Part shown: positions 1,768 to 15,597 of the stretch, piece after piece
How the letters are laid out: each line of letters opens with the position of its first letter
Numbering within the stretch: the stretch's first letter is position 1
Assembly (NCBI GenBank): GCA_963698035.1
Contig: OY969114.1
Location: 1-32,000 of the forward strand
Length of the DNA: 32,000 nucleotides
Origin: Candidatus Saccharimonadota bacterium
Lineage (GTDB): Archaea; Micrarchaeota; Micrarchaeia; Micrarchaeales; Micrarchaeaceae
Reading direction: 5' to 3'
Position numbers and translations under genes: made by a program
Notes under the pieces: generated by a model
Database searches by the model: none
What the model was told of the DNA's origin: nothing
What the model saw: the letters and a program-made list of their open reading frames with translations, nothing else

Positions 1768-1799
1768 TTAGATATACTTAGTTTTTCTTCAATTGTTTT

Positions 1800-1894: not shown

Positions 1895-1922
1895 AAAACA
1901 ATTGAAGAAAAACTAAGTATAT

Positions 1923-2180: not shown

Positions 2181-2281
2181 AATAACACATTCACATTATG
2201 ATTATTAGGTATTTATGAATTGTGGAAACATGGGGGTGTCCCCTTTGCCAAAAGAATTGAAGAAAAACTAAGAAGGTTTTA
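2181..2281 (-). promoter_or_regulatory. Cassette junction module (mirror of 1412..1512)
   Basis: Minus strand reads cttAGTTTTTCTTCAATTCTTTTGG caaa GGGGACACCCCCATGTTTCCAC aa TTCATAAATACC. Confidence 0.7.
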
Positions 2282-2599: not shown

Positions 2600-2623
2600 T
2601 TCTAGTGTTCCGGGCTATGAGAA

Positions 2624-2812
2624 TTATTTTCTAAGGCTGGCCATGAGATCGGGATTGTCCCGCTTAAATTTCTTGGCCTCCTCGTTGGCCAGATACACCA
2701 GATAGGCTATGACAGCGGCCGATGTTGCAACCATAGACGCAGCCAGGGCAGGATCTGTTGTAGCCCTCAGTTGACCACCTAATCTTCCGCGTTTAAAAAC
2801 AGTCGATGGCAT
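2624..2812 (-). CDS. Small membrane protein (62 aa), paralog of 881..1069
   Basis: Translation is identical to 881..1069. Confidence 0.6.
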   Translation of the reverse strand: MPSTVFKRGRLGGQLRATTDPALAASMVATSAAVIAYLVYLANEEAKKFKRDNPDLMASLRK

Positions 2813-2909
2813 ATTACCCCCAAATATACTCTTCGCTATATGATATTTAATACTATCATTAGTGGAAATACAGGAGGTGTCCCATATCTAAAAGAATTGA
2901 AGAAAACTA
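2813..2909 (-). promoter_or_regulatory. Cassette junction module; begins with the TAG stop codon of the HAD gene
   Basis: Minus strand reads TAG TTTTCTTCAATTCTTTTAG atat GGGACACCTCCTGTATTTCCAC ... TATTAAATAT. Confidence 0.7.
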
Positions 2910-3644
2910 TACGAATCTTAGCAGGTCCCTGAGATCTGATATCTCGGCTATGGTGCGTAGGGTGTCACCAGCATGCTTGTAGCCAATTGTCGGATAGTAT
3001 AAAGAAGCTTCAGTGTCCCCGCCATCGCTAACGAATAGGATATTGCCGCTTTCTATCCTCCATCTTGCTGCTATAGTATCTAGCACTATCTTTTTGTTGA
3101 GATCTCTTTGGTTTTCCCAAGGCTGGCCAGCGCCATTCGGATACGCGTATGTGCTAACATATTGACCTTGCGAATCAAAAACCGTAGTTCTGCCATAAAC
3201 ATTCATGGGAACTGGGCCGACGGAGATAACCGGCCTTAAAAATGCCCGGGGGTGAATTCTATTCGCAACAACTCTTGCGTATATGGTGGGAGAAAACGTG
3301 GCTATGTCAAGACCTACGCCTTCGGCATTCAGCCTCTCGACCACCTCAGATGCATGGTCCTCTAGCGGGGCCGTGTTTGCGGCGCTAACAAAGTCGGAAC
3401 GGCATAGCCCTACATCTTTCGCCGCAGATTCAAGGAAGCCCAGTGACTCCTGAAGACTTATTTTACCTCTTCTGAAAAGAGGGTATACCTCAGGAATGTT
3501 GTGTATTCTTTTCATGGATGACCAAGACGATTTCTCTTTGATTAAAACTCCGTCAAGATCAAATACCACTCTTTTTACATCGGCTTGGCCTACTACCCTC
3601 CGTTCTCTTTCCTGCGCATAGCTCAACATAATCATGATGGACAT
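2907..3644 (-). CDS. HAD-superfamily hydrolase/phosphatase (intact copy)
   Basis: Contains HAD motif I (VVFDLDGVL) and a C-terminal acidic motif (FVSDGGDTE). The TATA box lies only ~9 nt from the first ATG, so the true start may be M4 or M6 (3635 or 3629). Confidence 0.7.
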   Translation of the reverse strand: MSIMIMLSYAQERERRVVGQADVKRVVFDLDGVLIKEKSSWSSMKRIHNIPEVYPLFRRGKISLQESLGFLESAAKDVGLCRSDFVSAANTAPLEDHASEVVERLNAEGVGLDIATFSPTIYARVVANRIHPRAFLRPVISVGPVPMNVYGRTTVFDSQGQYVSTYAYPNGAGQPWENQRDLNKKIVLDTIAARWRIESGNILFVSDGGDTEASLYYPTIGYKHAGDTLRTIAEISDLRDLLRFV

Positions 3645-3724
3645 TTCCAGATATTTATACCTATCCTGGGCGTTTGTGGAAATGCGGGGGTGGCCTTTTT
3701 GCTAAAGGAATTGAAGAAAAACTA
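3645..3724 (-). promoter_or_regulatory. Cassette junction module; begins with the TAG stop of 3722..4630
   Basis: Minus strand reads TAG TTTTTCTTCAATTCCTTTAG caaaa AGGCCACCCCCGCATTTCCAC aaacgcccaggatag GTATAAATATCTGG. Confidence 0.7.
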
Positions 3725-4630
3725 AGAAAGCTTTGATCGTGTCCTTCTTTCATTTGCATACGTTTGTTCAAAAATCGACCTTGCTTCTTGAAGGGTTTGC
3801 GCCTTTATTGCAGCTGGAAAGTGGAACCTCAAAAGGGAAAGTTTCCCAACATCATCTAAGCTTCCGCGCGCTGCCTGTCTTATAGCATCCTTATTAAGTA
3901 CGTCCAGAGGTGTCAACGAGCCACGTACTTCTGCATTAAAACCAAGTCGGGTGAGCTCATTTTCGAGATATTGCGCATGGCCAGCGCCTACTATCACAAC
4001 AACGCAGTGACTTTGTCCTGTCTTGCTTGCAACCGCTGCTATGTTGTCCCTCATCGCAGGCTCCCTTATAAGGTCGGCTTCGCCGAGAAGTCTTGCCTCT
4101 GTCATGCAACCTTGCAGTGCTTCATTAAATGAAGTAGTAGTCCGCAGCGTTTTTATCGCGGTTCTTTTCTCAATATACCTGCTTCTTATCCTTTCGTCAG
4201 TAATGTCGGCGTCTATTGGAATAATTTCAATTCCGGCAGCGCTTAGCTTGATCAATAATTCCATTAATGTTTTGTAATACCATCGAAGTTCTGGTCTTGT
4301 CATATTATTTACGTGCGCCTGGAGCTCCTCTTCTGTGATCTTTGGCATTGCTGCATAAAATGCACGTTTATTACTTGAGCTTTCAAAGCATACGCTTGTA
4401 ATCTCATACTCTTTAGATAGCGATAAGATGTCTGCGTATAAGGCAACAAGGCCTCCGGCACCCTCATTGCCGTGCCTGTCGGGGAATATCACTATTCTAG
4501 GTGCAGCTACCCTTACTAATCCCTTGATACCGGGTTCATCCCTCTTAGGAATCGGAATGGGCTTTGCGCCAATTTCACTAACTAAAGCCGTTCTTACAGC
4601 CGGGCCTCGATCTATTGTTAGATCAGCCAT
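3722..4630 (-). CDS. Tiki/TraB/ChaN-superfamily-like protein (302 aa)
   Basis: N-terminal FPDRHGNE and C-terminal VVVIVGAGHAQY resemble the two His-containing motifs of this superfamily. Recognised by eye only. Confidence 0.4.
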   Translation of the reverse strand: MADLTIDRGPAVRTALVSEIGAKPIPIPKRDEPGIKGLVRVAAPRIVIFPDRHGNEGAGGLVALYADILSLSKEYEITSVCFESSSNKRAFYAAMPKITEEELQAHVNNMTRPELRWYYKTLMELLIKLSAAGIEIIPIDADITDERIRSRYIEKRTAIKTLRTTTSFNEALQGCMTEARLLGEADLIREPAMRDNIAAVASKTGQSHCVVVIVGAGHAQYLENELTRLGFNAEVRGSLTPLDVLNKDAIRQAARGSLDDVGKLSLLRFHFPAAIKAQTLQEARSIFEQTYANERRTRSKLS

Positions 4631-4682
4631 ATCTTCACATTATACTGCGGGACTTCAGATATTTACGCATTTTTCTGCTATT

Positions 4683-5108
4683 CTAATCTCTTAATCTCAA
4701 ACGTCTGAACAAATCGATAGTCTCACCATAAGATAGATGCTCTGGCACGCTCTCCATCTTTGTTAACCCTATTTCTGACAATTCGTATACTTCCTTGCCC
4801 AGCTTCAATGCGTGTATGATTTCCGCGCCCATCCCTGCTAAGACAAATCCTTGAAATCGTGTGTAAACCAACAAACTACACCTTTCGATAATGCCCAAAT
4901 AAAAACCCATATCCCTTATTCCATAGTCTTTTACTGTTGCTGGATTGATTATTGCATAGTCTGGAAAGTGCTGTGCTATGATCTGCACTTGCGCTTTTTC
5001 TTCCTTTGTGCCGTATACCGGTTGTGCGTGCGCGAAATAGACCGTCTTCTCAGCGTTTGCCGGAAGCAGCTTGGCTGCTGCTTCATCCCATAGGCTCGGT
5101 CTTTTCAC
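4683..5108 (-). CDS. Nucleoside 2-deoxyribosyltransferase-like (DUF4406-like) protein, GTG start
   Basis: Pattern is VYFAHAQP ... IIERCSLLVY ... AGMGAEIIHALKLGKEVY, as in NDT-like Rossmann proteins. The start codon is uncertain. Confidence 0.35.
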   Translation of the reverse strand: MKRPSLWDEAAAKLLPANAEKTVYFAHAQPVYGTKEEKAQVQIIAQHFPDYAIINPATVKDYGIRDMGFYLGIIERCSLLVYTRFQGFVLAGMGAEIIHALKLGKEVYELSEIGLTKMESVPEHLSYGETIDLFRRLRLRD

Positions 5109-5173
5109 GTATATAGCGCCTCCAGTTACAGCAGTTAAACCTTTATTCGTATTATTGCCCCCTTTCCGAACGC

Positions 5174-5584
5174 TTACCTTACCAGCTTTCCGGCTTCGGA
5201 AGCAGCACTACCGCCTGGCTGCATTTTACTCAACCGATTCGCATACTCATCTTCAAAAAGCTCTTTCCACTCCTTTCTGCGCTGCATACCCTCCTCTGTC
5301 ACATACCAGCAGGGCTCACCGAGATCCGAAACTGTCAATGGCGCCTTAAGTTCTACTGCCAGCAATCTCTCATTTAACATTTCGTCGAAGCGGACAGAGA
5401 GCTTATGGAGGTTATTAAAAAACCTTTGGCCGCTAGATAGGCCCAAAGAGGCCGCGGCACCCAATATTATCTGTGTCTTATCGCTCAGCTCGCGCAAAAT
5501 CATCAGGTCTGTTATGAGCAATCCCAATAATTCTTGCTCTGAGAGCCTCCGTGCTGGTTTAGGAACTGTTGCGCTTCCCTGCAT
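5174..5584 (-). CDS. Hypothetical protein (136 aa)
   Basis: ORF is preceded by a full junction module with a TATA box. Confidence 0.5.
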   Translation of the reverse strand: MQGSATVPKPARRLSEQELLGLLITDLMILRELSDKTQIILGAAASLGLSSGQRFFNNLHKLSVRFDEMLNERLLAVELKAPLTVSDLGEPCWYVTEEGMQRRKEWKELFEDEYANRLSKMQPGGSAASEAGKLVR

Positions 5585-5680
5585 ATTGCCACAAAAATAT
5601 TCTGTTTGCCCAAATATTTAATATTATCATTTGTGGGAAGCAGAAGTGTCCCTTTAATGAAAGAATTGAAGAGAAACTAA
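5585..5680 (-). promoter_or_regulatory. Cassette junction module
   Basis: Minus strand reads TTAGTTTCTCTTCAATTCTTTC attaa AGGGACACTTCTGCTTCCCAC aaatgataa TATTAAATATTTGGG. No same-strand gene lies upstream of it. Confidence 0.7.
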
Positions 5681-5740
5681 TCGCCTCCTATCCTGTACAA
5701 GTTGCTTAAATACTTTTATCTTGCATTACCTCTGATCTGC

Positions 5741-6316
5741 ATGGAGCTTAGAACAAAAAGATTGGTATTAAGGCGGCCTAGGAAGAATGACCTACCCAAT
5801 CTAGTTAAAAACATAAGCAACATTCGGGTGTCAAAATGGTTGCTTACTGTTCCTTACCCCTATACTATTAAAGATGCACGATGGTACCTGAATCACAGTG
5901 CAAAGAAGTGGGGTGCTAGAAAGAAGACGGGATACGCATTTTTTATAGCCTTGAAAAGCAACAGGCATGTAATTGGTGGATGTGGTATAGATGGGATCAA
6001 CAAAAGTCAGGGTACCGCAGAGGTTGGTTACTGGCTCGGTGAAAAATATTGGCGGAGAGGATACGGAAGCGAAGCTCTTGATGCTATGTTAAAGTTTACT
6101 TTCAACAGCCTAAAATTGAGGAGAGTGTCGGCGCCTATATTTGCTGGTAATCCAAGCTCGGGTAAATTATTGGAGAAATACGGATTCAAAAAAGAGGGAT
6201 TGAAAAGAAAATCTGCCGTGTGCAAAGCCAATGGTAAAATAAGGGACGAGGTTGTTTACGGATTGCTTAAAGAGGAGTGGAAAGCTGACAAGAGAAAAAG
6301 GGATTTATTCTCTTGA
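5741..6316 (+). CDS. GNAT family N-acetyltransferase (RimJ/RimL-like)
   Basis: Contains MELRTKRLVLRRP, GYWLGEKYWRRGYGSEA and GNPSSGKLLEKYGFKKEG. A TATA-like GCTTAAATAC lies ~27 nt upstream of the ATG at 5741. The tracked ORF starts at the TTG at 5702. Confidence 0.8.
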   Translation: MELRTKRLVLRRPRKNDLPNLVKNISNIRVSKWLLTVPYPYTIKDARWYLNHSAKKWGARKKTGYAFFIALKSNRHVIGGCGIDGINKSQGTAEVGYWLGEKYWRRGYGSEALDAMLKFTFNSLKLRRVSAPIFAGNPSSGKLLEKYGFKKEGLKRKSAVCKANGKIRDEVVYGLLKEEWKADKRKRDLFS

Positions 6317-6601
6317 CAAAAGCCTGTACACTTTTATTTGTGTTCCGTAGATGTCCTTGTAGATGCTGTCTTGTATTTTTTCTTGAACAAAGCCGTCCGC
6401 TGCAAGCCTTGGCAAAAGCTTTTCAAGCACGTGTTTCGCTTCTTGATCGTCCATCCCTACATTTATGGAGCACATCGCACGCACAATCTCATGGGAATTT
6501 TTCCACCTTTCAGATAATGCGTTTGGTATCAGGTTCTTATTTTCTAGATCTGAGCCTATGTATGGTCTAGAAGCAACTGCCGTGGGCATATTTTCACTCA
6601 A
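6305..6601 (-). CDS. Hypothetical small protein (98 aa), possible winged-helix fold
   Basis: ORF lies 6 nt downstream of 6608..6970. Its 3' end overlaps the convergent GNAT gene by 12 nt. Confidence 0.4.
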   Translation of the reverse strand: MSENMPTAVASRPYIGSDLENKNLIPNALSERWKNSHEIVRAMCSINVGMDDQEAKHVLEKLLPRLAADGFVQEKIQDSIYKDIYGTQIKVYRLLSRE

Positions 6602-6607
6602 TAATAA

Positions 6608-6970
6608 TTACGGGTTATCCAGTTCGGAACCTATGGCCCTGAGTAATTTTGTGCACGCGGTCTCGGTTTCTGCTGGATACGTAAAACGCGAGGAAAGAAA
6701 TTCATGCACTGCACTCTCGGTTGCCGGCGTTGATTTGAGCTCTGCGGAGAGCATTTCTCCGGTGTGACTTATATCCTCAATAATACTTATTCTTCCATCA
6801 GACAATACGCCAATCGTCAAATCGAACGGTCTTTCTGCACCGGACTGAATTTCTGCGGTCTTTGGAGTTATGCGTACAATAGCAGCGTTGCGATCTGCGT
6901 GCGTGTCAATGCGCAGCTCTACTCCTGGAGTTATTACGGTTCGGCAAGCTGTTACCATTATATCACACAT
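6608..6970 (-). CDS. Hypothetical protein (120 aa)
   Basis: ORF has an upstream TATA (CCAGATATTTAAAGC at 6985-6999 on the plus strand). Confidence 0.45.
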   Translation of the reverse strand: MCDIMVTACRTVITPGVELRIDTHADRNAAIVRITPKTAEIQSGAERPFDLTIGVLSDGRISIIEDISHTGEMLSAELKSTPATESAVHEFLSSRFTYPAETETACTKLLRAIGSELDNP

Positions 6971-7047
6971 AATATAGCGTATTTCCAGATATTTAAAGCC
7001 TATGAATTACAGCAAAGTGGGGGTGTTTTATTATGCTTCTGTACCTT
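6971..7047 (-). promoter_or_regulatory. Partial junction module (G-string box and TATA only, no CTTCAATTC box)
   Basis: Plus strand 7010-7028 reads acagcaaaGTGGGGGTGtt. TTTAAATATCTGG lies upstream of the ATG at 6970. Confidence 0.5.
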
Positions 7048-7536
7048 TTAGACTAGTGTTCTTCGGACCTTCCCTTTGCAAATAGTACCGTTGTGACCGA
7101 TATCATGCAAAGTGTATTGTAGAATATACTCGAAGACCGGAGGCAAAGCGAAACTTGGCACTTCGCACTCCATTTCAAAAGCTTTGGTTTTACAATGGTT
7201 TATGCCATTAACATCAAATCTTATACATTTGTTTAATATCGCTTCAAAAGAAGTTTGTAGCTCCTCCGTTTTATCTGGCATACTGCGTGCTTCCCACGTT
7301 GAGTATGCTTTTTCCAGAAAAGGCATAACTTGCTGTAGCTGCAATCTTGCAATAACTTTCCTCTCCTCAACATCCGCTGCCATTCTCTTATAATCAAGTA
7401 CATTTGTTAGTGTTGATGACTCTGATGGTAAACTTCTGGTTCCCGTTTTCGTCACCATTTTATCGTATTTTAATATTTTAACTGTCTGCAACTGGGATCC
7501 ATCGTGCATTAACTTTTCGTGTGTTAGCGACGACAA
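7048..7536 (-). CDS. Hypothetical protein; true start possibly 7458
   Basis: The ORF overlaps the upstream gene by 59 nt. An internal Met (MVTKTG) at 7458 removes the overlap. Confidence 0.4.
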   Translation of the reverse strand: MSSLTHEKLMHDGSQLQTVKILKYDKMVTKTGTRSLPSESSTLTNVLDYKRMAADVEERKVIARLQLQQVMPFLEKAYSTWEARSMPDKTEELQTSFEAILNKCIRFDVNGINHCKTKAFEMECEVPSFALPPVFEYILQYTLHDIGHNGTICKGKVRRTLV

Positions 7537-7978
7537 ACCTTGCCGTTATTTCGTTTTCACCTGTAACTGAATAGTTTCCTATGGCAATGCTGTCTTTAAA
7601 AGCGAATATCGAGGTATGCATTTTCCTTTTGCCCTCAAAATATTTTCTGATCTCTTTCATTACCCCTTTCAGCTCTCCTTTGTCTGTAAGATCTACGCCG
7701 CTGATGGTGAATGCCATAGTGCCGCCGTGTGTAACCCATTCCTTCCGGCTATTGCTGGAGACCTCATGACCATAATGCATTGTGTATACTTTTGATACAT
7801 GTAGTTTTATATCGCTGTGATCGCTGTTAAAATTCAGCGCGCTTTGCGCAAACCTTTCAGAAATTTCGTCGGCCTGCCGCTTGATACTGTCTGCACTGTA
7901 CTCTACTAGTCCGGGTACGCTCCTTAAGAGCTTCCGTGTCGTAGGGCTTGCCTCTAAATTTTGAGAGATGGTTGACAT
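7478..7978 (-). CDS. Hypothetical protein (166 aa)
   Basis: ORF is preceded by a short junction module and an AT-rich TATA region. Confidence 0.45.
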   Translation of the reverse strand: MSTISQNLEASPTTRKLLRSVPGLVEYSADSIKRQADEISERFAQSALNFNSDHSDIKLHVSKVYTMHYGHEVSSNSRKEWVTHGGTMAFTISGVDLTDKGELKGVMKEIRKYFEGKRKMHTSIFAFKDSIAIGNYSVTGENEITARFVVANTRKVNARWIPVADS

Positions 7979-8037
7979 TTTATCACATTTTAATATTTTT
8001 ACTAGCAGAATTGAAGAAAACTAATATTTTAGTTTTA
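7979..8037 (-). promoter_or_regulatory. Short junction module (T-rich CTTCAATTC box fused directly to the TATA region)
   Basis: Minus strand reads TAA aactaaaata TTAGTTTTCTTCAATTCTGCTAG TAAAAATATTAAAAT gtgataaaATG. Confidence 0.6.
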
Positions 8038-8937
8038 TTGTCTCCTAAAGATATCACCCAGGAGCCTATTCCCAAGTTCGTCATTCCTTCTCAGCGCGCC
8101 TTCCACCAGCTCCAACTCCAGCCCTTCTATCATCTGCTTAATCTCACCTTGCTCTTCGACGCCGCCGAAGGTGATCGTGCCCTTAATCATCTCTTCCATG
8201 AGCCCCGAGAAGTGATTCAAGCTGCTTTTTAGAGTAGTGAAGTCTTTTGCATACTTCGATAGTATTGTGCCCACCTTGTGCATGTCCGGCGTGGGGACAA
8301 GAAGTGTCACAAGCCCTGCCACGTCTATAGGATCCTTGACCCTCGTGCTGTCCAAGGATAGCACAAGCTTCATTGCAAGCAGGGATTCTGTGTCGACCAT
8401 ACGGATCCATTGTTTCGAATATGGAATGACTCCCCTTACGCTATGCTCCGATAATACATCATCTGGCGGCATCAAGAGCCTGTCGCGCCTTTCTACATAT
8501 ACATCGATGTCTACCTCAGTTCCACTTGTGTCTTTGGCCTTTATCTCGTGCTTTTTAAGGATTGGATTGTAATTTATACCCCAACCGTTCTCGTTCGCCA
8601 TTCCCTGAAGTAGGGTCCAGCCGCCCTCTGAAACGGCAACATCTATGTCATGAGACTTCCTCAACCCGCACTTTGCAAATACCGCCCATCCTCCTATGAC
8701 CGCGATCATGGGCATATTGCCGCTGTCAGCCTCGCGCACCTCTTGCCTATTGAAGATCTGAGACATTATTTCTAGGCAGGCGCGTTCTTTTGCGGCATCC
8801 GACGTAACGGCCTGTGAAGCCTTGGCCTTGAGCGCGTTGCCTATCTCCCCTTTTGCGCTTCTAGGCATAATACCAAAAGCAGGCTCTGGGCTTCTGGCTG
8901 TTGTATTTGTTATATCCACCACAATTGGCATAATCAT
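8035..8937 (-). CDS. Nucleotidyltransferase-fold protein, AbiEii/DUF1814-like
   Basis: IGGWAVFAKCGLRKSHDIDVAV fits the GG..(R)xSxDxD minimal NTase motif. ESLLAMKLVLSLDSTRVKDPIDVAGL resembles the AbiEii C-terminal K/D motif. Confidence 0.45.
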   Translation of the reverse strand: MIMPIVVDITNTTARSPEPAFGIMPRSAKGEIGNALKAKASQAVTSDAAKERACLEIMSQIFNRQEVREADSGNMPMIAVIGGWAVFAKCGLRKSHDIDVAVSEGGWTLLQGMANENGWGINYNPILKKHEIKAKDTSGTEVDIDVYVERRDRLLMPPDDVLSEHSVRGVIPYSKQWIRMVDTESLLAMKLVLSLDSTRVKDPIDVAGLVTLLVPTPDMHKVGTILSKYAKDFTTLKSSLNHFSGLMEEMIKGTITFGGVEEQGEIKQMIEGLELELVEGALRRNDELGNRLLGDIFRRQ

Positions 8938-9119
8938 CTACTAATTTAGCGCTGGGGATGATATTTATGCTTATCGAGAGGGTGCGCTACCCGTCGCAGT
9001 TACGGCCCACTCAAGCCATCCCTTACCGCTTCAGTTACCATTTCCTAGCTTATGATGATACTCTCAGCCGTACTCTATTTACCAAAATATTTATGCCTGT
9101 CTAAGAGCATTTGCGGAAA

Positions 9120-9392
9120 CTAATCTTGCAATTTTGCAAGATACTCCTCCCCCTCGCGGGTGATTAGATAGGTCCTTGGAGGATTTTGGCGGGTATACTG
9201 TTCAGGAAATATCTGGTCTGATTCCTTGACGAACCCTCTTCCAACCAACGACTTAAGCGTTTTGCCTAATTCATCCTCTGCTGTGTTTGTAACGTGCCTT
9301 ATGTACTCCGGTGTCTCGCCTGGACTACCGCGCAAGCATTCAAGCACGCGTTCTTCAATAATTCTCGTAGGCATTCTCGTTGTTTGCATCAT
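9120..9392 (-). CDS. Small winged-helix DNA-binding protein (90 aa)
   Basis: ERVLECLRGSPGETPEYIRHVTNTAEDELGKTLKSLVGRGFV has a wHTH-like pattern. TATA box ATATTTATGC is at 9417-9431. Confidence 0.45.
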   Translation of the reverse strand: MMQTTRMPTRIIEERVLECLRGSPGETPEYIRHVTNTAEDELGKTLKSLVGRGFVKESDQIFPEQYTRQNPPRTYLITREGEEYLAKLQD

Positions 9393-9608
9393 ATTATCGC
9401 AAAATCGCTGTGTTTTACGTAATATTTATGCTTATCTTTCATCACAAAAGAATCAAAGAAAAAGTATAATTTTACTAAAGACCCCTATCTGTTAATTTTT
9501 TTCAAACTGAACTTTAATGAATCTTTAGTTAACAATAGTAAGCACCTTAAGATACTTAAGGCTTTGCTATGCACGGGCTTTGCACTTAAAATATGACTTG
9601 CACTTATT

Positions 9609-10253
9609 TTAATCACGGGCCTCTACATGTTGCAGTCCTTCTTGGCTGGGCGCTCCTGTAGACAGGATTCCTGTCGGTCTTCTCTGTTGCTTGAGTCTCC
9701 TTCTTTCATCCTTGCATCTTTCCTTTTGGTATCTAATAGTATCTTTCTCCGATCTAAAGATGCCGCCTTCGTATACACCTCCTGCGGCTTTAAAGACTCC
9801 GTTAAATGTTGAACCATCAGAGCGAGTGACATTTCCGTCCATCTCAATTGCACCATCTACAGTTGTATTAGTAATCACCTTCTGCCCATACGCACTGAGG
9901 CCATGTAACTTCGACTTGACAACCAATACTCCATTAGAAAGGCTGCCTCCATAAACTTCCGACCTCCCTAATATAACTGAGTCTCGATTTTGATTTACAT
10001 CAGACCAAACAAGAGATTCAGAGCCCGGTGTTACTTCATACCATCCTCCACCAGTAAGATTTCTCCTAAGCTGGTGCTCTGAACCGTTAGATTTAAGAAC
10101 AAATGTGGCTACCTTTTCTTCAATAGGTATTCTGGCTACCAGACCGGGTAATTCAAGAGCGGACTGAATGCTACCAATCTGTACGGCTATGGCCCTTTCT
10201 TGTGTTGTAAGGGAGGCGATTGTTAGACAAGTTTGTTGTGTTTTGAATGCCAT
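9609..10253 (-). CDS. Hypothetical protein (214 aa), Gly-rich beta-type repeats and a basic C-terminus
   Basis: ORF with its own TATA box. No family recognised. Confidence 0.45.
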   Translation of the reverse strand: MAFKTQQTCLTIASLTTQERAIAVQIGSIQSALELPGLVARIPIEEKVATFVLKSNGSEHQLRRNLTGGGWYEVTPGSESLVWSDVNQNRDSVILGRSEVYGGSLSNGVLVVKSKLHGLSAYGQKVITNTTVDGAIEMDGNVTRSDGSTFNGVFKAAGGVYEGGIFRSEKDTIRYQKERCKDERRRLKQQRRPTGILSTGAPSQEGLQHVEARD

Positions 10254-10296
10254 ATAATCATAAGTAGCTGCGATTTCCCAGATATTTATGCTTTTC
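10254..10296 (-). promoter_or_regulatory. Promoter half of a junction module split by the transposon
   Basis: CCCAGATATTTATGC at 10277-10291 (plus strand) lies ~25-38 nt upstream of the ATG at 10253. The transposon target duplication starts 6 nt beyond the TATA box. Confidence 0.6.
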
Positions 10297-10305
10297 CTGA
10301 AGCCT
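10297..10305. repeat. Target-site duplication, left copy (CTGAAGCCT)
   Basis: An identical 9-mer occurs at 14581-14589, immediately outside the two terminal inverted repeats. Confidence 0.75.
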
Positions 10306-10369
10306 AGCTTTGCTAATAAACCTTGCTAATTAATTTACTTTGTTAGCAGATTTAATTCTTTATTAGCAG
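10306..10369. repeat. Left terminal inverted repeat plus subterminal TTTATTAGCA-type repeats
   Basis: Copies are TGCTAATAAA (10311-10320), TGCTAATTAA (10324-10333), TTTGTTAGCA (10339-10348) and TTTATTAGCA (10359-10368). Confidence 0.7.
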
Positions 10370-10370
10370 A

Positions 10371-11612
10371 CTATTCTATTTTACCATCTAAGAGGTCTTG
10401 AACTGTCCTCAAAACTATCTCTAAGCCGTCTTGATTCTTAACTCTGGCTACCTCTTCTTTAGCACCACTACCAAAAGAAAAAGCAACTACATATCCTTTC
10501 TTTCTATTCATACGACGCATAGCCGTCTCAAAGTTATCTATCACATTTCTTCCAACATCAGGACTTTGCTTGACTTGTATAGGATAGCCACCAGTAACTT
10601 GTGGGGTAAGCCCATCAATTCCCATATCACCAGATTTTGTTCTGCTTATAGTCCCTAAGAACTTATCAACAACAACCCAGTTCTGAAACTCGAATGGTTC
10701 AAGCTTTTTGACATAGTTTATATCGACGTCGCCTTTTACCATCTGTGCGGTTATGTGATATTCTTTCTTCAATCGCTTAGCCATCAGTTTACACGCAGTT
10801 GGGCTTATGTCAATTCCTATCCACTTTCTACCATTTTTTTGTGCAGAAGATATAGCAGTTCCGCAACCACAGAAAGGGTCTAAGACCAATTCGTCTTTAT
10901 TAGAGCTTGCACTTATTATCCTATCCAAAAGTGCTACTGGTTTTTGTGTAGGATAACCCATGTATTCTCCAGTATTATTTATTGTCTGAAACGAAGGAAT
11001 GTCAGTCCATACTGTAGACATCGCTTTTCCTTTAGATTTATCCAAATAAACTATTCTTTTCTTTCCGTCTTTATCAAAATAGATTTTGTATTTCCTACCT
11101 TCGTCATCAGTTTTGTCATATCTTTTTATTGTCCTTTGATCTAATTCTCCATGTTCTTTATTGAAAGTATATTTGCTTGATTTAGAATAGAAAAGAATGG
11201 TGTCATGACCTCTAATCCATTTATTTGCTTGTGCTTTGAATCCAGACGAAGTTTCGTTTGACCATATGATTTCATTCTTAAAGTTCTTTTCACCAAATAT
11301 CTTATCCATTAAAATTCTAAGGTGTGCATTTGCATGATAATCGCAGTGCAAATAAATAGAGCCAGTTTCTTTCAGCACTCTCCAACATTCTCTTAATCGT
11401 GGCTCCATCCACGTTATATAAAATTCAATATCACCTTCCCATCTATCTTTAAAACTACGTATTTCTTCTTTATCATGCCAAATAACCTCGTAGTTTTTGT
11501 TAGTAAAGAAGGGAGGGTCAAGATAAATCAGGTCAATTTTATTATCTGGGAACTTGCTCATAATCTCCAGATTATCTCCCTCATAAATAGCATCAATTTC
11601 CATAGCTGACAT
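10371..11612 (-). CDS. DNA methyltransferase (beta-class, DPPF) fused to a C-terminal Mrr-like PD-(D/E)xK nuclease domain
   Basis: Motif IV (IYLDPPFF) lies near the N-terminus and motif I (DPFCGCGT) is later. The C-terminal GDMGIDG..YPIQVKQ resembles the Mrr catalytic core (GIDG...QxK). Confidence 0.75.
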   Translation of the reverse strand: MSAMEIDAIYEGDNLEIMSKFPDNKIDLIYLDPPFFTNKNYEVIWHDKEEIRSFKDRWEGDIEFYITWMEPRLRECWRVLKETGSIYLHCDYHANAHLRILMDKIFGEKNFKNEIIWSNETSSGFKAQANKWIRGHDTILFYSKSSKYTFNKEHGELDQRTIKRYDKTDDEGRKYKIYFDKDGKKRIVYLDKSKGKAMSTVWTDIPSFQTINNTGEYMGYPTQKPVALLDRIISASSNKDELVLDPFCGCGTAISSAQKNGRKWIGIDISPTACKLMAKRLKKEYHITAQMVKGDVDINYVKKLEPFEFQNWVVVDKFLGTISRTKSGDMGIDGLTPQVTGGYPIQVKQSPDVGRNVIDNFETAMRRMNRKKGYVVAFSFGSGAKEEVARVKNQDGLEIVLRTVQDLLDGKIE

Positions 11613-11620
11613 TATATCAT

Positions 11621-12853
11621 CTAAGCTTTAAAAACCTTATCAGAAAGCTCTGGAGTTATCCCAAGCTCATATATCGCACTTATCAAAACTGTTATGTTAT
11701 ATGCTATCAGTTTGCACATTAGCTCGTTGGTCTGCGATACAAAGTTTTTGTTCTTTAGACCATCGCCGAGCTTGGTCTTGATAGCCATATTCGTTGTCTC
11801 TATGTTAGACCTTTTGTGATAATGTTCCATAAATTCTTCTTGTTTGTATTGGAACAAATGGAACATATTACGCCACAAGCGAGACTTACCTCTTGGGTTT
11901 CCTACTGCGTTTGATTTGAAGGGAATGTAAGGCGTTATGCCCATCTCTTCCGCAAGAACGTAGTTAGCTCTTGAGCTATACGCTTTGTCCGCACTAATCT
12001 CTTGCACATTAAATCCATTCTTTGAAGTTGTTTGAAGCAACGAAGGAAAAGATAGCGTATCGTTTTCGTGTTCTGATGTTATCTCAACTGATGTTATCAC
12101 ATTCGTTTTAGTTCCTACGCACAAGTGAGCTTTTAACCAGTGATGCCCTTTGTTCGTTCCATATTTGTTATGGCAATACTCTCCGAACTTCGTGGTTCTA
12201 AATCCAGTGCTATCTATTGCGAACTGGGTCTCAACACTCTTTAAAGGCAACGCTGTAATCTCCAGCAGTTCCTTTAGCAGTGGCGTTATCTCTGGGTCGT
12301 TGAGCAATATGTTTATCACGTTATAATTAGGTGCTTTGCTTATCTGCTCCTTGCCTTGAGCGTTCCTATAAAGCGAATATGCACGTCTGCTTGATAGCTG
12401 GGAATAGACCTTTTGTATTGCACAGAATAAGCCCTCTCTCAAAGGCACTCTTGGTCTTCCTATCACTTGCACTGGCTCATTTATGTTTTGAACCAAGTCT
12501 CTTAGAAGCTCATCAAAGAGCTTTACCTCTTCGTTCTGTGCCTTAGTGTAAGCAGACCAGTTTTGAGGATAGGTTATCCTCTTGGTCGCTGTTATCGTAG
12601 TGCTACCATCTTTATTGACCTGTTTTTCTACTGTGATTTCTACTGCGAATATATGCTTACATTTGACCCCTCTGGTCGCATAATCTCGGCACGTGCATCT
12701 TGACCCATCAATCCTTAGTTCTACGCTATAAGATTGTCTTGGATTAGTCTGCGATGGCACTTGCCATATACCGTTCCTATTGACTATCTGTTTTGTCTGG
12801 GCTATTGCATAGCCCTTTTCTTTTCTCTTTTTTACCAGTTCTACTTGTTGCAT
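11621..12853 (-). CDS. DDE transposase, IS4/IS5 superfamily, with an N-terminal SWIM zinc finger
   Basis: SWIM motif is CTCRDYATRGVKCKH. DDE elements are FAIDSTGF, ISADKAYSS and the Y-x2-R-x3-E-x6-K signature (YHKRSNIETTNMAIK). The stop lies 8 nt from the methyltransferase start. Confidence 0.85.
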   Translation of the reverse strand: MQQVELVKKRKEKGYAIAQTKQIVNRNGIWQVPSQTNPRQSYSVELRIDGSRCTCRDYATRGVKCKHIFAVEITVEKQVNKDGSTTITATKRITYPQNWSAYTKAQNEEVKLFDELLRDLVQNINEPVQVIGRPRVPLREGLFCAIQKVYSQLSSRRAYSLYRNAQGKEQISKAPNYNVINILLNDPEITPLLKELLEITALPLKSVETQFAIDSTGFRTTKFGEYCHNKYGTNKGHHWLKAHLCVGTKTNVITSVEITSEHENDTLSFPSLLQTTSKNGFNVQEISADKAYSSRANYVLAEEMGITPYIPFKSNAVGNPRGKSRLWRNMFHLFQYKQEEFMEHYHKRSNIETTNMAIKTKLGDGLKNKNFVSQTNELMCKLIAYNITVLISAIYELGITPELSDKVFKA

Positions 12854-12869
12854 ATCAGCACCATATTGT

Positions 12870-12958
12870 TAGGCACCTAACTATATACTATTAGGCACCT
12901 ACAAGTATATATATCTATCGGTATGCTACCGCAAGGTTTATAAAGGAATAGGCACCTA
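12870..12958. promoter_or_regulatory. Three TAGGCACCTA boxes in the divergent promoter region between the transposase and the DUF488 operon
   Basis: Exact 10-mers occur at 12870-12879, 12892-12901 and 12949-12958, interleaved with TATA-like tracts (CTATATAC, GTATATATAT, TTTATAAAG). Confidence 0.65.
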
Positions 12959-12966
12959 ATAGTATT

Positions 12967-13764
12967 ATGAAGCTTCAAAAACGCTTTTCTCGTAAGGTAA
13001 ATGACAAGGAATACGTCAAGTGGATATTGACAATACCACCAGAGGACATAGAAAAAGTTGGCTGGAAAGAAGGTCAAGATGTTAATTCTGTTGTAGTGGC
13101 GGATGGATTACTCATAAAGAAAAGTGAATCTATCAATTACGTTGATTTCAAGAACCGCTTATATGCTCTCCTAAATGAAGGTTTTGGCTTTACTTGGAAC
13201 GAAATAAAAAGACGGTTGAACATAGAGCAAACCATTCCAAACAATAAATGGGTAAATGACCTTCAAAAAGACATTCAATTAAGGCGAAGAAAGATAGGAG
13301 CCACTACCTATTGGTATTTGGAAAAAGGTGGAACGCCGATTTATACGATTGGTTATGAAGGCAAAAGCGTAGAGGAGCTTATAGAAATACTCAAAAGATA
13401 TGGAATAAAACGCTTAGTTGATGTAAGGGAATTAGCACTTAGTCGTAAAAATGGTTTTTCAAAATCCGTATTGAAAGATAAGCTAAATGAAAATCATATA
13501 GGGTATCAGAATATATCCGAGCTTGGTTCTCCGAGAGTTTTGAGACATCAGCTATGGAACGACAAAAACTATGACGAGTTCTTCAAGAAATATTCAGAAT
13601 GGATTGATTCTATCAACTCAAAAACCGCTTTAGAAAACCTTGAAGGATTAGCACACATCAGAGCTACCGCAATAATGTGTTTTGAAAAGGATGTAGAAAA
13701 ATGCCATCGAAGTATAATCAAGAAAAGGCTAATTCAAGATGGCTTCAAGGTCGTTGATTTATGA
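12967..13764 (+). CDS. AbrB/SpoVT-like domain, winged-helix-like linker and DUF488 domain fusion protein
   Basis: The N-terminus ILTIPPEDIEKVGWKEGQDVNSVVVADGLLIKK matches the AbrB swapped-hairpin pattern. The C-terminal half (IYTIGYEGKS...VDVR...CFEKDVEKCHRSII) matches DUF488. Confidence 0.65.
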   Translation: MKLQKRFSRKVNDKEYVKWILTIPPEDIEKVGWKEGQDVNSVVVADGLLIKKSESINYVDFKNRLYALLNEGFGFTWNEIKRRLNIEQTIPNNKWVNDLQKDIQLRRRKIGATTYWYLEKGGTPIYTIGYEGKSVEELIEILKRYGIKRLVDVRELALSRKNGFSKSVLKDKLNENHIGYQNISELGSPRVLRHQLWNDKNYDEFFKKYSEWIDSINSKTALENLEGLAHIRATAIMCFEKDVEKCHRSIIKKRLIQDGFKVVDL

Positions 13765-14525
13765 CATCCACAAAAAAGCGAGTTATAATAGTAGCGAAAA
13801 CTTATCCTAATCTTAGCGAGAAATACGAGGAAACTGTATGCGTTGCTGGGATAGATATGGAGACTGGCGACTGGATTAGGATGTTTCCAATAGCCTTTAG
13901 AAAATTGCGTCCTTCACAGAAGTTTAGGAAATTTGATATTATTGAAGTGGAAACGGAACGATATAACGACAAATATACGAGAGTTGAAAATTATAGGGTT
14001 AGGGATAAAAGTATCAAAATCATAGAGCACAAATCAAATCCAGATTGGGAATCAAGAAAGGACATATTATTGCCTAAGTTAATTGATTCAGTAGAGGAAC
14101 TTGAAACTTCAAGAGACGCATCTCATAAGACATTAGGTTTGATAAAGCCGAGAGAAATCGTAGATTTTTATAAGAAAAATATAGATGAATGTAGAGACTG
14201 GGAAAAAGAATTGATTGAAGGGACACAAAGAACCCTTTTTGGAAATTATAGGACTCCATTAAAGAAAATCCCTTACTGGATGGGATATAATTTTCTCTGT
14301 AATGGTGCTAACTGCGGAGGGCATAATATGATGTGCGAAGATTGGGAATTGATGGAGCTATTTAGAAGTATGAAAAATAGGTTTGGTAATGAAGTGGGTT
14401 TTAGTAAGGTTAGAGATAAGTTCTTTGAATGGATGCAACAAAGGGATGTCTATTTCGTGCTTGGAACAGAAAGCAGATGGAATAGGTTTTTGATAGTCTC
14501 GGTGTTTTATCCGCCGAGAGAGTGA
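13761..14525 (+). CDS. Uncharacterised 254-aa protein with a Cys/His cluster (CNGANCGGHNMMCEDWE)
   Basis: ATGA start/stop overlap with the DUF488 gene indicates translational coupling. No family recognised. Confidence 0.55.
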   Translation: MTSTKKRVIIVAKTYPNLSEKYEETVCVAGIDMETGDWIRMFPIAFRKLRPSQKFRKFDIIEVETERYNDKYTRVENYRVRDKSIKIIEHKSNPDWESRKDILLPKLIDSVEELETSRDASHKTLGLIKPREIVDFYKKNIDECRDWEKELIEGTQRTLFGNYRTPLKKIPYWMGYNFLCNGANCGGHNMMCEDWELMELFRSMKNRFGNEVGFSKVRDKFFEWMQQRDVYFVLGTESRWNRFLIVSVFYPPRE

Positions 14526-14526
14526 G

Positions 14527-14580
14527 TTTATTAGCAACAATCAGACTTTATTAGCAGGAAGGTAGTTTATTAGCAAAGCT
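14527..14580. repeat. Right subterminal repeats (3 x TTTATTAGCA, 19-20 nt spacing) ending in the right terminal inverted repeat
   Basis: Exact 10-mers occur at 14527-14536, 14547-14556 and 14566-14575. Confidence 0.8.
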
Positions 14581-14589
14581 CTGAAGCCT
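14581..14589. repeat. Target-site duplication, right copy (CTGAAGCCT)
   Basis: Identical to 10297-10305. Similarity continues for 9 more nt (GGCTTTGCT versus AGCTTTGCT), because the flank resembles the element's own terminus. Confidence 0.75.
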
Positions 14590-14633
14590 GGCTTTGCTCA
14601 GAAAGTTCGTTCTGCCTCCTTGAAGAAAAACTA
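14590..14633 (-). promoter_or_regulatory. Terminator-side half of the junction module split by the transposon
   Basis: Minus strand reads TAG TTTTTCTTCAAGGAGGCAGAACGAACTTTCTGAGCAAAGCC, starting at the stop codon of 14631..15119. Confidence 0.6.
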
Positions 14634-15119
14634 AACCCTTCTTATTTTAGCAAGATCGCCTTTTTCCTCTAATACCAAATCCGTAACTACGGCGGGCACC
14701 TCTCTTACGTCTTTAACAATGTGTGCTACTGAAACCCTTCTATTACCATCAACGTCAACATAACATTCGGGCGCCTTTCTATCTGCCTTTCTGATCCTGA
14801 GCAAACATATTGGAGCGACCGGGTCGGGTGCGATGACCCTTAAGTCCATTGCGACCTCAAAAACATTCCACCACCTTCGATCTCTGCCTTTTGGCGTAGG
14901 ACTCCAGTTTTCATAATACTTGTCGGCATTGTCTAGTCGTGTGCCCACTATATCTGCCACCGGAACGGGTTGTTCTTTTGGATTTGCCCTTACACGACGA
15001 ACTTCGGGGTTGCTTTCTGAGAATTCGGGATGGTCCTTCTCTATTGCTCTAATAAGCTCTACCATAATCTCATCTATAATGATTATATTCTCGGGCGTCA
15101 GTCTTTGTTTCTTAACCAT
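14631..15119 (-). CDS. Hypothetical protein with a possible ParB/Srx-like domain
   Basis: PICLLRIRK...YVDVDGNRRVSVAHIV...VPAVV resembles the ParB N-terminal DGxxR(R) motif. Weak, by-eye call. Confidence 0.35.
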   Translation of the reverse strand: MVKKQRLTPENIIIIDEIMVELIRAIEKDHPEFSESNPEVRRVRANPKEQPVPVADIVGTRLDNADKYYENWSPTPKGRDRRWWNVFEVAMDLRVIAPDPVAPICLLRIRKADRKAPECYVDVDGNRRVSVAHIVKDVREVPAVVTDLVLEEKGDLAKIRRV

Positions 15120-15436: not shown

Positions 15437-15525
15437 AATACCACATATATGTTGTGGCGTTTCAGATATTTATGCATTTATTTTGGTCGCCTCAAAGCCA
15501 AGGAAAAGAGGGAATTAAAGGAATG

Positions 15526-15597
15526 TGGGCCCGCGGAGAATCGAACTCCGTATCTTCACGTTGTCAACGTGACGTCTTACCAATCGACTACGAGCCC
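15526..15597 (-). tRNA. tRNA-Val (anticodon GAC), no encoded CCA
   Basis: Hand-folded cloverleaf: GGGCTCG TA GTCG-ATTGGTA-AGAC G TCACG TTGACAA CGTGA AGATA CGGAG TTCGATT CTCCG CGGGCCC A (72 nt). Confidence 0.9.

Follow-up and report, generated by a model that had tools for sequence, protein, structure and literature searches.

A 4,275-bp IS5-like transposon occupies positions 10306-14580 of the 32,000-nt window (the whole stretch of archaeal genome analysed here, whose numbering is used throughout), and it carries a DDE transposase gene, the two-gene operon A-B in divergent orientation, and a gene for a methylase-Mrr fusion. Protein A joins an AbrB-like domain and a winged helix to a DUF488 domain, and protein B is a DuOB protein. 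Our favoured explanation, to which as a whole we give a probability of about 0.5, is that the transposon carries A-B as conflict cargo under the IS's own AbrB repressor, with DUF488 as the enzyme and DuOB as the binder. What is new here is the combination, across 12 of 12 lineages, of a divergent transposase with a lineage-specific four-box control region, together with the existence of IS copies that have a stand-alone 55-aa AbrB gene.

The transposon, its transposase and its neighbours

The element is bounded by perfect 16-bp terminal inverted repeats, AGCTTTGCTAATAAAC on the left (10306-10321) and GTTTATTAGCAAAGCT on the right (14565-14580), which are 100% complementary, and an identical 9-mer, CTGAAGCCT, directly abuts both of them as a target-site duplication in direct orientation (10297-10305 and 14581-14589), an arrangement of IS5 type. 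Subterminal TTTATTAGCA-type repeats were found at 10311-10368 on the left (two inverted and two direct), presumed to be transposase-binding sites, and at 14527-14575 on the right (three copies of TTTATTAGCA, + strand); allowing at most one mismatch, TTTATTAGCA has nine matches in the window against a chance expectation of 3.07, and seven of the nine are at the two transposon ends. A similar terminal repeat and a 9-bp duplication are present at locus L012, and inverted ends were also sought at L001, L002 and L010, where they were not definable and where the ends carry different subterminal repeats. The GC content of the region is low, at 0.36 compared with 0.55 for the host.

The transposase gene (11621-12853, - strand) encodes a 410-aa IS5-like DDE protein with an N-terminal SWIM zinc finger (SWIM, 7.8e-5), which passed the Pfam DDE_Tnp_1 model (5.9e-24; 85.4 bits, cut-off 23), fell just under the cut-off of the NCBIfam IS5 model NF033579 (136.6 bits, cut-off 140), and has the conserved residues D214, D289 and E352 with the signature Y-x2-R-x3-E-x6-K. 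Upstream of A, in divergent orientation, all 12 of the AbrB-winged-helix-DUF488 lineages examined have a homologous transposase gene (one copy truncated). The A-B pair was present beside only 2 of 64 testable transposase relatives and absent from the other 62. The truncated copy, at L076-L079, is reduced to profile positions 76-272, with A, B and the boxes of the control region intact beside it, and that A protein was read on 13 contigs.

Within the element, the passenger gene at 10371-11612 (- strand) encodes a 413-aa fusion of an N6/N4 DNA methyltransferase to an Mrr-type nuclease fold (N6_N4_Mtase, 8.4e-50; Mrr_cat, 7.3e-6; PADLOC MTase_II, 1e-74). A full-length homolog of this fusion follows A-B in a distant element, L080 (32% identity, E=6e-72), and 8 of 11 distinct elements have a DNA methylase or restriction-modification gene no more than about 3 kb away. 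In the wider B family, a methylase was near 4 of 66 loci in a phmmer search of limited sensitivity; an obligatory methylase partner for the whole family was rejected on this count, the link being confined to the transposon-borne clade. The preliminary description of this DNA had placed the two genes on a transposon next to a methyltransferase-nuclease fusion, as the ends and domain matches confirm, within an island that was said to hold an AbiEii-like gene as well; a match for the latter does exist at 8035-8937, but it is weak (E=0.0022) and under the Pfam cut-off.

The divergent control region

The transposase gene (- strand) and A (+ strand) are separated by a 113-nt divergent region (12854-12966), in which four palindromic boxes, all on the + strand, are interleaved with two TATA elements, TATATA on the transposase side (12882-12887) and TTTATAAA on the side of A (12937-12944). 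Box 1 (TAGGCACCTA, 12870-12879) is flanked by the start codon of the transposase gene and the TATA on the transposase side, box 2 (TAGGCACCTA, 12892-12901) is on the opposite side of that TATA, and box 4 (TAGGCACCTA, 12949-12958) is between TTTATAAA and the ATG of A. Box 3 (12919-12931), which immediately precedes the A-B operon's TATA, is degenerate, reads CGGTATGCTACCG, and has an intact counterpart in the alignment at L001, L002, L010 and L012. The preliminary description had counted three exact boxes, starting at 12870, 12892 and 12949 (the third being box 4), and these proved to be the only exact copies of TAGGCACCTA in the whole 32 kb, compared with 0.05 expected by chance and with three or more copies in 0 of 100 shuffles. 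Both the transposase gene and A appear from the sequence to be leaderless.

Control regions were compared by aligning four related loci first and then twelve regions in all. The TATA before A was invariant and the box positions were kept across the compared regions, the four boxes having fixed positions and lineage-specific sequences (TAGGCACCTA, TAGGCGCCTA, TAGGTGCCTA, TAGGTACCTA, TAGrTAyCTA, TAGACGTCTA, TTGGTACCAA and TGGGTACCCA). The possibility that the boxes are transposon-end sequences was considered and rejected, since they are unlike the terminal repeats. Some IS copies (L094, L100 and L119) have, divergent from related transposases, a stand-alone 55-aa AbrB gene that lacks the winged helix and DUF488, and boxes of the same kind adjoin these genes, so neither the winged helix nor DUF488 is needed to explain the boxes. 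The N-terminus of A in this clade is homologous to the small AbrB-type protein that these related IS copies encode alone. Given the transposase in every one of the 12 lineages, the lineage-specific boxes and the stand-alone AbrB copies, we read the boxes and the AbrB domain as a repressor circuit that seems to belong to the IS family itself, and onto which DUF488-DuOB has been grafted. The earlier suggestion that the boxes are operators through which the AbrB domain regulates its own gene is supported, as regards operators, by their fixed positions, their changing sequences and their presence beside stand-alone AbrB genes, but autoregulation of a cargo operon was too narrow a reading, as the AbrB domain and boxes appear to be the regulator of the IS transposase.

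In the mechanism that we propose, the AbrB domain would bind the four palindromic boxes (TAGGCACCTA in this element) as a dimer or tetramer, possibly with a contribution to box binding from the winged helix or from the N-terminus of the transposase. Because the boxes bracket both of the two back-to-back TATA boxes, bound AbrB would repress the transposase and A-B together and couple their doses. Capture of a passenger module by in-frame fusion to the IS's own repressor is an unusual evolutionary route, and as a consequence of this fusion the transposase and its passenger would switch on together.

The DUF488 and DuOB proteins

Protein A (265 aa, 12967-13764, + strand) consists of an AbrB-like domain, a winged helix and DUF488, as the preliminary description had read it. 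Residues 1-55 (12967-13131) were assigned to the swapped-hairpin DNA-binding domain of AbrB/SpoVT/MazE type by the AlphaFold2 (AF2) topology, which is strand-strand-helix-strand-strand over ~50 residues and includes the motif 'IP....L....G', by hhalign against AbrB/Abh/SpoVT/MazE (probability 64%, E=6.5e-5, residues 21-55 on AbrB 16-50), and by Foldseek, which matched SpoVT/AbrB phage proteins (TM 0.5-0.6) and SymE at a probability of about 1.0. The match to the Pfam MazE/AbrB model PF04014 was under the cut-off (16.8 bits, E=0.0066, cut-off 24.7), and the same model matched 7 of 33 close homologs at E<0.01. Among other DuOB-linked DUF488 proteins, 5 of 34 matched PF04014 (MazE; best E=1.1e-7), 4 of 34 had a SocA/Panacea N-terminus and 1 of 34 an XRE helix-turn-helix. 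Residues 56-121 (13132-13329) form a winged helix by AF2 secondary structure and Foldseek, the matches being the RPC34 winged helix (probability 1.0, TMt 0.65) and ScpB.

Residues 122-265 of A (13330-13764) are a Rossmann-like DUF488 domain of the DUF488-N3a 'active' subclade, above the cut-offs of both Pfam models (DUF488 PF04343, E=5.5e-29, 101.7 bits, cut-off 22.2; DUF488-N3a PF22751, 30.6 bits, cut-off 27). The large DUF488 family has members in bacteria, archaea and viruses, and the DUF488 protein of Halogranum tailed virus 1 also supports the assignment of the domain in A. Twelve residues of the domain are invariant in 61 DuOB-linked proteins (G129, Y130, D152, R154, S159, Y180, G187, C238, E240, C246, H247 and R248). 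In the AF2 model, Cys238 closes strand 234-238 and C246-H-R248 open the next helix, giving the spacing C238-x7-C246-H-R248; the canonical phosphatase C-x5-R loop is absent. The Foldseek matches to tetrapyrrole-type methylases and PTP-fold phosphatases were weak (E 0.008-0.1, TM 0.2-0.3, with E 0.02-0.13 given for the PTPs), and both are groups that Burroughs and Aravind (2023) reportedly placed in the same superfamily as DUF488. Sequence searches of solved structures with A, and likewise with the AbrB-domain profile, gave nothing significant. DUF488 would belong to the rhodanese/phosphatase type of Rossmann-like fold and would work as an active enzyme that depends on cysteine; the account of Burroughs and Aravind (2023) is said to agree with this. 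Its probable target is the terminal phosphate or sugar of a nucleic acid, a DNA end being the likeliest.

Protein B (254 aa, 13761-14525, + strand) is translationally coupled to A, the stop of A and the start of B overlapping by 4 bp (ATGA) as described earlier. The preliminary description had found a Cys cluster in B, which lies at residues 180-196 (CNGANCGGHNMMCEDWE), and had left the protein without a family. It has one: B matched the Pfam model DuOB PF22557 (dual OB fold) at 1.8e-7 (31.8 bits, cut-off 27), albeit over profile positions 1-104 of 210 only, and its AF2 model (pLDDT 88.5), which has two OB folds, was matched by Foldseek to the tandem-OB proteins RPA70-AB, Teb1 and HIN-200, and to LEF-3. 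A sequence search of solved structures with the B profile gave nothing significant. Residues C27, C180, H188, D194, W195 and E196 are invariant, and 3,082 cluster representatives belong to the family at E<=0.001. DuOB may be a tandem OB protein resembling RPA, with a probable zinc site, that would bind DNA, either single-stranded or at its ends, and provide target recognition. When pairwise identities were compared (45 non-independent pairs from 10 elements), transposase and DUF488 were correlated at r=0.82, as were the two halves of B with each other, whereas either half of B against both of the former gave |r|<0.2. We infer from these identities that elements have swapped the B gene on its own, which would fit a role as a specificity module.

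The pair had been put forward as a candidate novel two-gene system, but a PADLOC scan identified it as PDC-M19, with A matching the PDC-M19A model PDLC04505 at 1.4e-35 (residues 122-258 on model 148-284 of 294) and B matching the PDC-M19B model PDLC04508 at 1.4e-58 (residues 5-253). The PDC-M19B model was also matched by 25 of 25 diverse B homologs. On these profile matches, DUF488-DuOB is a conserved pair already listed by PADLOC as a candidate defence system, and not a new one. The two genes do co-occur elsewhere: of the 66 genome loci with a B relative, 60 have a DUF488 gene next to it, usually with the stop and start codons overlapping. A contig end truncates five of the remaining six, and the last contains just a partial B. 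All-against-all clustering of the ORFs at the 66 loci found no third conserved gene near B, the neighbours varying by locus, and the pair is self-contained and spread across archaea and bacteria. No relevant paper on PDC-M19 or DuOB was found in the literature searched, and the eLife 2020 paper on conflict systems makes no mention of DUF488.

Function of the pair and its relation to known systems

A-B is most likely conflict cargo directed against viruses or other mobile elements, travelling with DNA-modification genes, and no part of the transposition machinery. Cargo is favoured over a transposition factor by the low frequency of the pair among transposase relatives (2/64) and by the survival of A, B and the boxes beside the truncated transposase of L076-L079. 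The methylase and restriction-modification genes near most of the elements compared speak for a conflict context. Our best guess for the biochemistry is a cysteine-dependent enzyme that processes nucleic-acid ends and is guided by an RPA-like DNA binder.

The constant adjacency of the transposase and its co-divergence with DUF488 (r=0.82) could reflect a functional tie deeper than cargo. DUF488-DuOB might be a transposition accessory working with the DDE transposase in a three-component transposon, where its role might be to protect or process the ends or single-stranded flaps of DNA that excision and integration produce, to repair the donor site, or to limit transposition. This reading, which we consider rather unlikely, accounts for the transposase found in all 12 lineages and for the control region common to transposase and A-B, and an OB-fold DNA binder with a predicted end-processing enzyme would suit DNA-end chemistry. 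To our knowledge, the link between E. coli yeaO and IS4 is the only phenotype reported for a DUF488 gene. When yeaO was deleted in E. coli, CRISPR spacers were acquired almost only from the IS4 transposase gene insG, and the authors proposed that YeaO restrains IS4 (bioRxiv 10.1101/2024.05.24.595836); the transposase link seen here, if functional, would connect to that phenotype. However, the pair occurs at about 56 other genome loci without this transposase, the 62 of 64 transposase relatives that lack A-B indicate that transposition does not need it, B has been swapped independently of the transposase, and the pair persists where the transposase is truncated. A stronger form, in which DUF488-DuOB is a dedicated partner of DDE transposases (a Cys-dependent DNA-end enzyme with an RPA-like end or flap binder) that polices or completes transposition, is in our judgement doubtful. 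In this archaeal IS family the dedicated partner would have been wired into the transposase's own repressor, and this, if true, would together with the yeaO/IS4 observation make transposon control the ancestral job of the widespread DUF488 family.

Improbable as well is an addiction module of toxin-antitoxin type that stabilises the transposon or island, in which A would be an AbrB-type autorepressor and antitoxin-like protein and either B or the DUF488 domain of A itself would harm cells after loss of the element. The layout does resemble that of type II systems with AbrB-fold antitoxins (MazE, PrlF, VapB) in having an AbrB/MazE-like domain at the N-terminus of the first gene product, a bicistronic 4-bp overlap and palindromic operators; the MazE, SocA/Panacea and XRE N-termini of other DuOB-linked DUF488 proteins are typical of antitoxins, and the pair is mobile and self-contained. 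Unlike those systems, the locus has no recognisable toxin, neither A nor B matching a known toxin family in Pfam, NCBIfam or PADLOC, and the conserved, catalytic-looking residues sit in an enzyme domain of the 'antitoxin-like' A rather than in B. We know of no tandem OB folds that act as toxins, and a simpler account of the AbrB domain, which also exists alone beside related transposases, is that it is the regulator of the IS itself. Very improbable is that A and B are ordinary host regulator or repair genes lying by chance beside an IS, with the boxes serving the transposase promoter only, since, for all that the DUF488 family is broadly distributed and has members, E. coli yeaO among them, that are chromosomal single genes, and that Foldseek assigned no defence-specific fold to A or B, the two genes lie inside the inverted ends and target duplication, the arrangement recurs in at least 12 lineages, the neighbours differ between loci and the GC content departs from that of the host.

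The locus is a compact, testable version of the DUF488-DuOB pair. It brings together two back-to-back archaeal promoters, apparently leaderless, and an enzyme domain with 12 invariant residues, and its 10-bp palindromic operator, which varies by lineage, offers a ready specificity test for the AbrB domain.

Among known systems, the locus agrees with PDC-M19 (PADLOC-DB v2) in that A and B match both models and are adjacent on the same strand, and differs in that the match of A is limited to its DUF488 half, so that the PADLOC model has a different N-terminus from the AbrB and winged-helix one seen here; nor is PDC-M19 known as transposon-borne or co-regulated with a transposase. DUF488 is said to have been placed by Burroughs and Aravind (2023) in the rhodanese-phosphatase superfamily's RapZ-C-DUF488-DUF4326 clade, and the likeness to their DUF488 and DuOB extends from both Pfam models exceeding their cut-offs here to a Rossmann-like domain with an invariant Cys at a strand end, a loop and a helix starting C-H-R, the classical C-x5-R of the superfamily being replaced in A by C-x7-C-H-R. 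The transposon resembles IS4/IS5 elements with passenger genes (the 'transporter IS' of ISfinder) in its DDE_Tnp_1 transposase with a Y-R-E-K signature, its 16-bp inverted ends and its passenger genes within them, and the IS903 group of IS5 in its 9-bp target duplication, but it scores 136.6 against 140 on the NCBIfam IS5 model, its transposase has the N-terminal SWIM finger, and its divergent AbrB regulator gene is fused in frame to the passenger. In Tn3-family transposons, one transposon protein binds several sites between the divergent tnpA and tnpR genes and represses both. The present locus differs from the tnpA/tnpR region in that it has no recombinase, its promoters are of archaeal TATA type, its binding is predicted, and the fold is AbrB-like instead of the helix-turn-helix of a serine recombinase; the two are alike in having several sites in a short divergent region between the genes of the transposase and a regulator, and in that the regulator is itself an enzyme or is fused to one.

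The transposon and its setting

The 4,275-bp element is a real transposon. It is bounded by a perfect 16-bp inverted repeat, AGCTTTGCTAATAAAC (10306-10321 and 14565-14580), outside which the 9-mer CTGAAGCCT is directly duplicated (10297-10305 and 14581-14589), and it holds four genes: a methylase-Mrr fusion gene (10371-11612; N6_N4_Mtase 8e-50, Mrr_cat 7e-6), a transposase gene on the minus strand (11621-12853, 410 aa; DDE_Tnp_1 6e-24, SWIM 8e-5) and, divergent from it on the plus strand, gene A for the AbrB-winged-helix-DUF488 protein (12967-13764, 265 aa) and gene B for the DuOB protein (13761-14525, 254 aa). Against the NCBIfam IS5 model the transposase scored 136.6 bits, below the cut-off of 140. 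Repeats of the TTTATTAGCA type are clustered immediately inside both ends; they are asymmetric, the left end (10311-10368) having two inverted and two direct copies and the right end (14527-14575) three direct ones, and three-fold subterminal repeats of other sequences were seen in the related loci L010 (TTTATGTGCA), L002 (ACACAAAAG) and L001 (GTGTTTAAAAAGTC). The related locus L012 has similar inverted ends with a 9-bp duplication, GATGGATCT, enclosing only a transposase gene, A, B and one small ORF. Immediately 3′ of the right target duplication, GGCTTTGCTCAGAAAG (14590-14605) is similar to the transposon's terminal repeat and matches the L012 repeat at 10 of 16 positions; possible readings are a leftover end and a preference of the element for inserting beside such sequences.

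The element has a GC content of ~0.36, compared to 0.55 in flanking host DNA, and lies within a low-GC stretch (~1-15,000) that ends near a tRNA-Val(GAC) gene (15525-15597). This gene marks the point at which GC climbs from ~0.40 to 0.55, which suggests that the stretch is an integrated island adjoining it. The host is an archaeon, since GGGP synthase/PcrB, NFACT and TYW2 are encoded. Elsewhere in the window, a near-perfect inverted repeat (130-1799 and 1895-3562; 98-100% identity, arms of ~1.67 kb, spacer of ~95 nt) contains a 106-aa ORF twice, at 1094-1414 (+) and 2279-2599 (-), the two differing by one residue; the alternatives are a genuine large palindrome within the island and a fold-back artefact of assembly. 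The AbiEii-like gene (8035-8937, -) that the preliminary description placed in the island is a weak assignment (E=0.0022; 18.4 bits against a Pfam cut-off of 22.5). Just beyond the transposon, a 162-aa ORF (14631-15119, -) gave a weak PADLOC match to PD-Lambda-5_A (E=6e-4) and no family in a Pfam search.

The two proteins and their distribution

Protein A passes the Pfam DUF488 (5.5e-29) and DUF488-N3a (30.6 bits, cut-off 27) models, and its AF2 model (pLDDT 86.6) has three parts: a strand-strand-helix-strand-strand domain (residues 1-52), a winged helix (58-118; Foldseek matches to RPC34 and ScpB) and a Rossmann-like domain (124-264). The N-terminal domain fell below the Pfam cut-off for AbrB (E=0.0066). 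Profile comparison with AbrB/Abh/SpoVT/MazE (probability 64%, E=6.5e-5), Foldseek matches to SpoVT/AbrB phage proteins and SymE, and significant MazE matches in other DuOB-linked DUF488 proteins (best 1.1e-7) support reading it as a putative AbrB domain. In such proteins the N-terminus varies, being absent, a short extension, MazE/AbrB, SocA/Panacea, ParB-N with a helix-turn-helix, or an XRE helix-turn-helix; among 34 from other lineages, SocA/Panacea was found in four and XRE in one. The Methanoregulaceae protein at L003:6862-7902 carries N-terminal ParB_N and HTH_ParB, and an archaeal ParB-DUF488 fusion has been reported as CTP-binding (bioRxiv 10.1101/2025.10.10.680097).

Twelve DUF488 residues (G129, Y130, D152, R154, S159, Y180, G187, C238, E240, C246, H247 and R248) are invariant in 61 DuOB-linked DUF488 proteins, which argues for a probable active enzyme. 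The domain has a Cys/His/Arg constellation at a strand end and helix start, and weak Foldseek matches connect it to PTP-fold phosphatases and tetrapyrrole-type methylases. Burroughs and Aravind reportedly placed DUF488 in the rhodanese-phosphatase superfamily in 2023 and predicted DNA-end processing; the canonical C-x5-R loop is absent, so membership of that superfamily is tentative. Protein B is a Pfam DuOB protein (1.8e-7; 3,082 family representatives at 50% clustering, E<=0.001), and its AF2 model (pLDDT 88.5) is similar to the tandem-OB DNA binders RPA70-AB, Teb1, HIN-200 domains and LEF-3. All 25 diverse homologs compared keep C27, C180, H188, D194, W195 and E196, which likely form a zinc site.

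A scan with the B profile against one genome per species gave 66 loci in DPANN archaea, Thermoplasmata, Methanomicrobiales, Methanocaldococcus, Bacteroidota, Actinomycetota and others. A DUF488 gene adjoins B in 60 of them, mostly immediately upstream with stop and start overlapping; the other six comprise five truncated by a contig end and one with only a partial B. No further conserved neighbour gene was found around the pair in the 66 loci. A PD-(D/E)xK (PDDEXK_1) protein of ~390 aa, encoded immediately 3′ of B in two distant transposon-borne elements (L080:6600-7778 and L081:6618-7808) and with a close homolog near the pair at L005:5863-7026, may be an optional third component.

A control region common to transposase and pair

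The preliminary description of the layout was accurate: A and B overlap at ATGA, the divergent region is 113 nt (12854-12966), and the only exact TAGGCACCTA boxes of the window start at 12870, 12892 and 12949 (0.05 expected; three reached in 0 of 100 shuffles). We examined 12 lineages with the AbrB-winged-helix-DUF488 architecture, which has >400 homologs, mainly in DPANN metagenomes: the window, L001, L002, L010, L012, L144 and the contigs encoding P0083, P0089, P0100, P0145, P0124 and P0174. All 12 have a homologous DDE transposase gene divergently upstream of A and four palindromic boxes of 10 bp whose positions are conserved; in the window the third is degenerate (12919-12931). The box sequence differs by lineage (TAGGCACCTA, TAGGCGCCTA, TAGGTGCCTA, TAGGTACCTA, TAGrTAyCTA, TAGACGTCTA, TTGGTACCAA or TGGGTACCCA). 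Two A/T-rich TATA elements have boxes on either side. The element preceding A reads TTTATAAA in the window, and most relatives have TATATAAA there; it is ~26 nt 5′ of the ATG, implying a predicted leaderless mRNA. The last box lies between this TATA and the A start codon, with a mirrored layout on the transposase side.

The most telling evidence came from a reverse search, which gave 80 metagenomic transposase relatives (43-60% identity), 64 of them with >=400 bp of upstream DNA. About 15-20 of these 64 have a small divergent ORF (49-90 aa) with an AbrB/SpoVT motif, and in L094, L100, L119 and L123 its product resembles A residues 1-53 (E=1e-20 to 1e-27). Boxes of the TAGGTACCTA/TCGGTACCTA type or TAGGTGCCTA/TCGGCACCTA are at the equivalent place in L094, L100 and L119. 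We conclude from these stand-alone genes and their boxes that the IS family probably owns an AbrB-type regulator with predicted operators, and that in one clade the regulator gene appears to have been joined in frame to a gene for winged-helix-DUF488, with DuOB coming next. The L094 contig holds a full A-B pair and, ~2 kb away, a transposase accompanied only by a stand-alone gene for a 55-aa AbrB protein, with four TAGGTACCTA/TCGGTACCTA boxes (65-1650 and 3733-5188), so both forms coexist in one genome. These comparisons point to the AbrB domain as the predicted binder of the boxes; the earlier idea of AbrB autoregulation is thus supported as to the operators, but its meaning differs, as the circuit would also control the transposase.

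Cargo or transposition partner

We favor DUF488-DuOB as conflict- or defense-type cargo, with a probability of about 0.5. Of 11 distinct elements, 8 have a DNA methylase gene or restriction-modification genes within ~3 kb of the pair, of several kinds (N6/N4 with Mrr or lacking it, MmeI-like, or a C5/NgoPII/Vsr set), which counts for cargo; a full-length homolog of the window's methylase-Mrr fusion is 3′ of A-B in the distant element L080, and the methylase link is absent from the wider family (4 of 66 loci). That the pair is a transposition partner is unlikely, although linkage to the transposase is strict in this clade and deletion of E. coli yeaO (DUF488) restricted CRISPR spacer uptake almost entirely to the IS4 transposase gene (bioRxiv 10.1101/2024.05.24.595836). 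The pair occurs in about 56 genome loci without the IS5-like element's transposase, and 62 of the 64 testable transposase relatives lack it, A-B being present in only two. It also outlives transposase decay: the P0174 lineage, whose A protein was found on 13 contigs, has a C-terminally truncated transposase (profile positions 76-272 only, E=1.8e-61) but intact A, B and boxes. In pairwise identities, which are 45 non-independent pairs and descriptive only, the transposase tracks DUF488 (r=0.82) and the winged helix (r=0.65), as a partner might, but B co-diverges with neither transposase nor A (|r|<0.2) while its own halves track each other (r=0.82), indicating that the B gene is exchanged as a unit. 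An addiction module is less probable again, and something else is a further alternative.

We infer a mechanism in which AbrB dimers on the four boxes would hold off both leaderless promoters, and lifting of repression would produce transposase, A and B together. As a tandem OB protein of the RPA type, DuOB would engage single-stranded DNA or a DNA end and either present it to the DUF488 domain or activate that domain. The domain may act in a thiol-dependent manner on the terminal phosphate or sugar of a nucleic acid. This chemistry is suggested by the Cys/His/Arg constellation, the weak Foldseek neighbors and the superfamily grouping and DNA-end processing reportedly put forward by Burroughs and Aravind. 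The locus offers a useful way into DUF488 and DuOB biochemistry, and its interest would rise much if the transposase link proves functional.

The pair had been put forward as a novel two-gene system, but it is already known as a candidate in PADLOC and Pfam: A matches PDC-M19A (1.4e-35) and B matches PDC-M19B (1.4e-58) in PADLOC-DB, so it is already catalogued as a candidate defense system, and our literature search found no paper on PDC-M19. What is new here is a DUF488 domain fused to a predicted repressor that the IS encodes, four predicted, lineage-variable operators common to A and the transposase, the strict residence of the AbrB-winged-helix-DUF488 clade on an IS5-like element in the 12 lineages examined, and the independent exchange of B.
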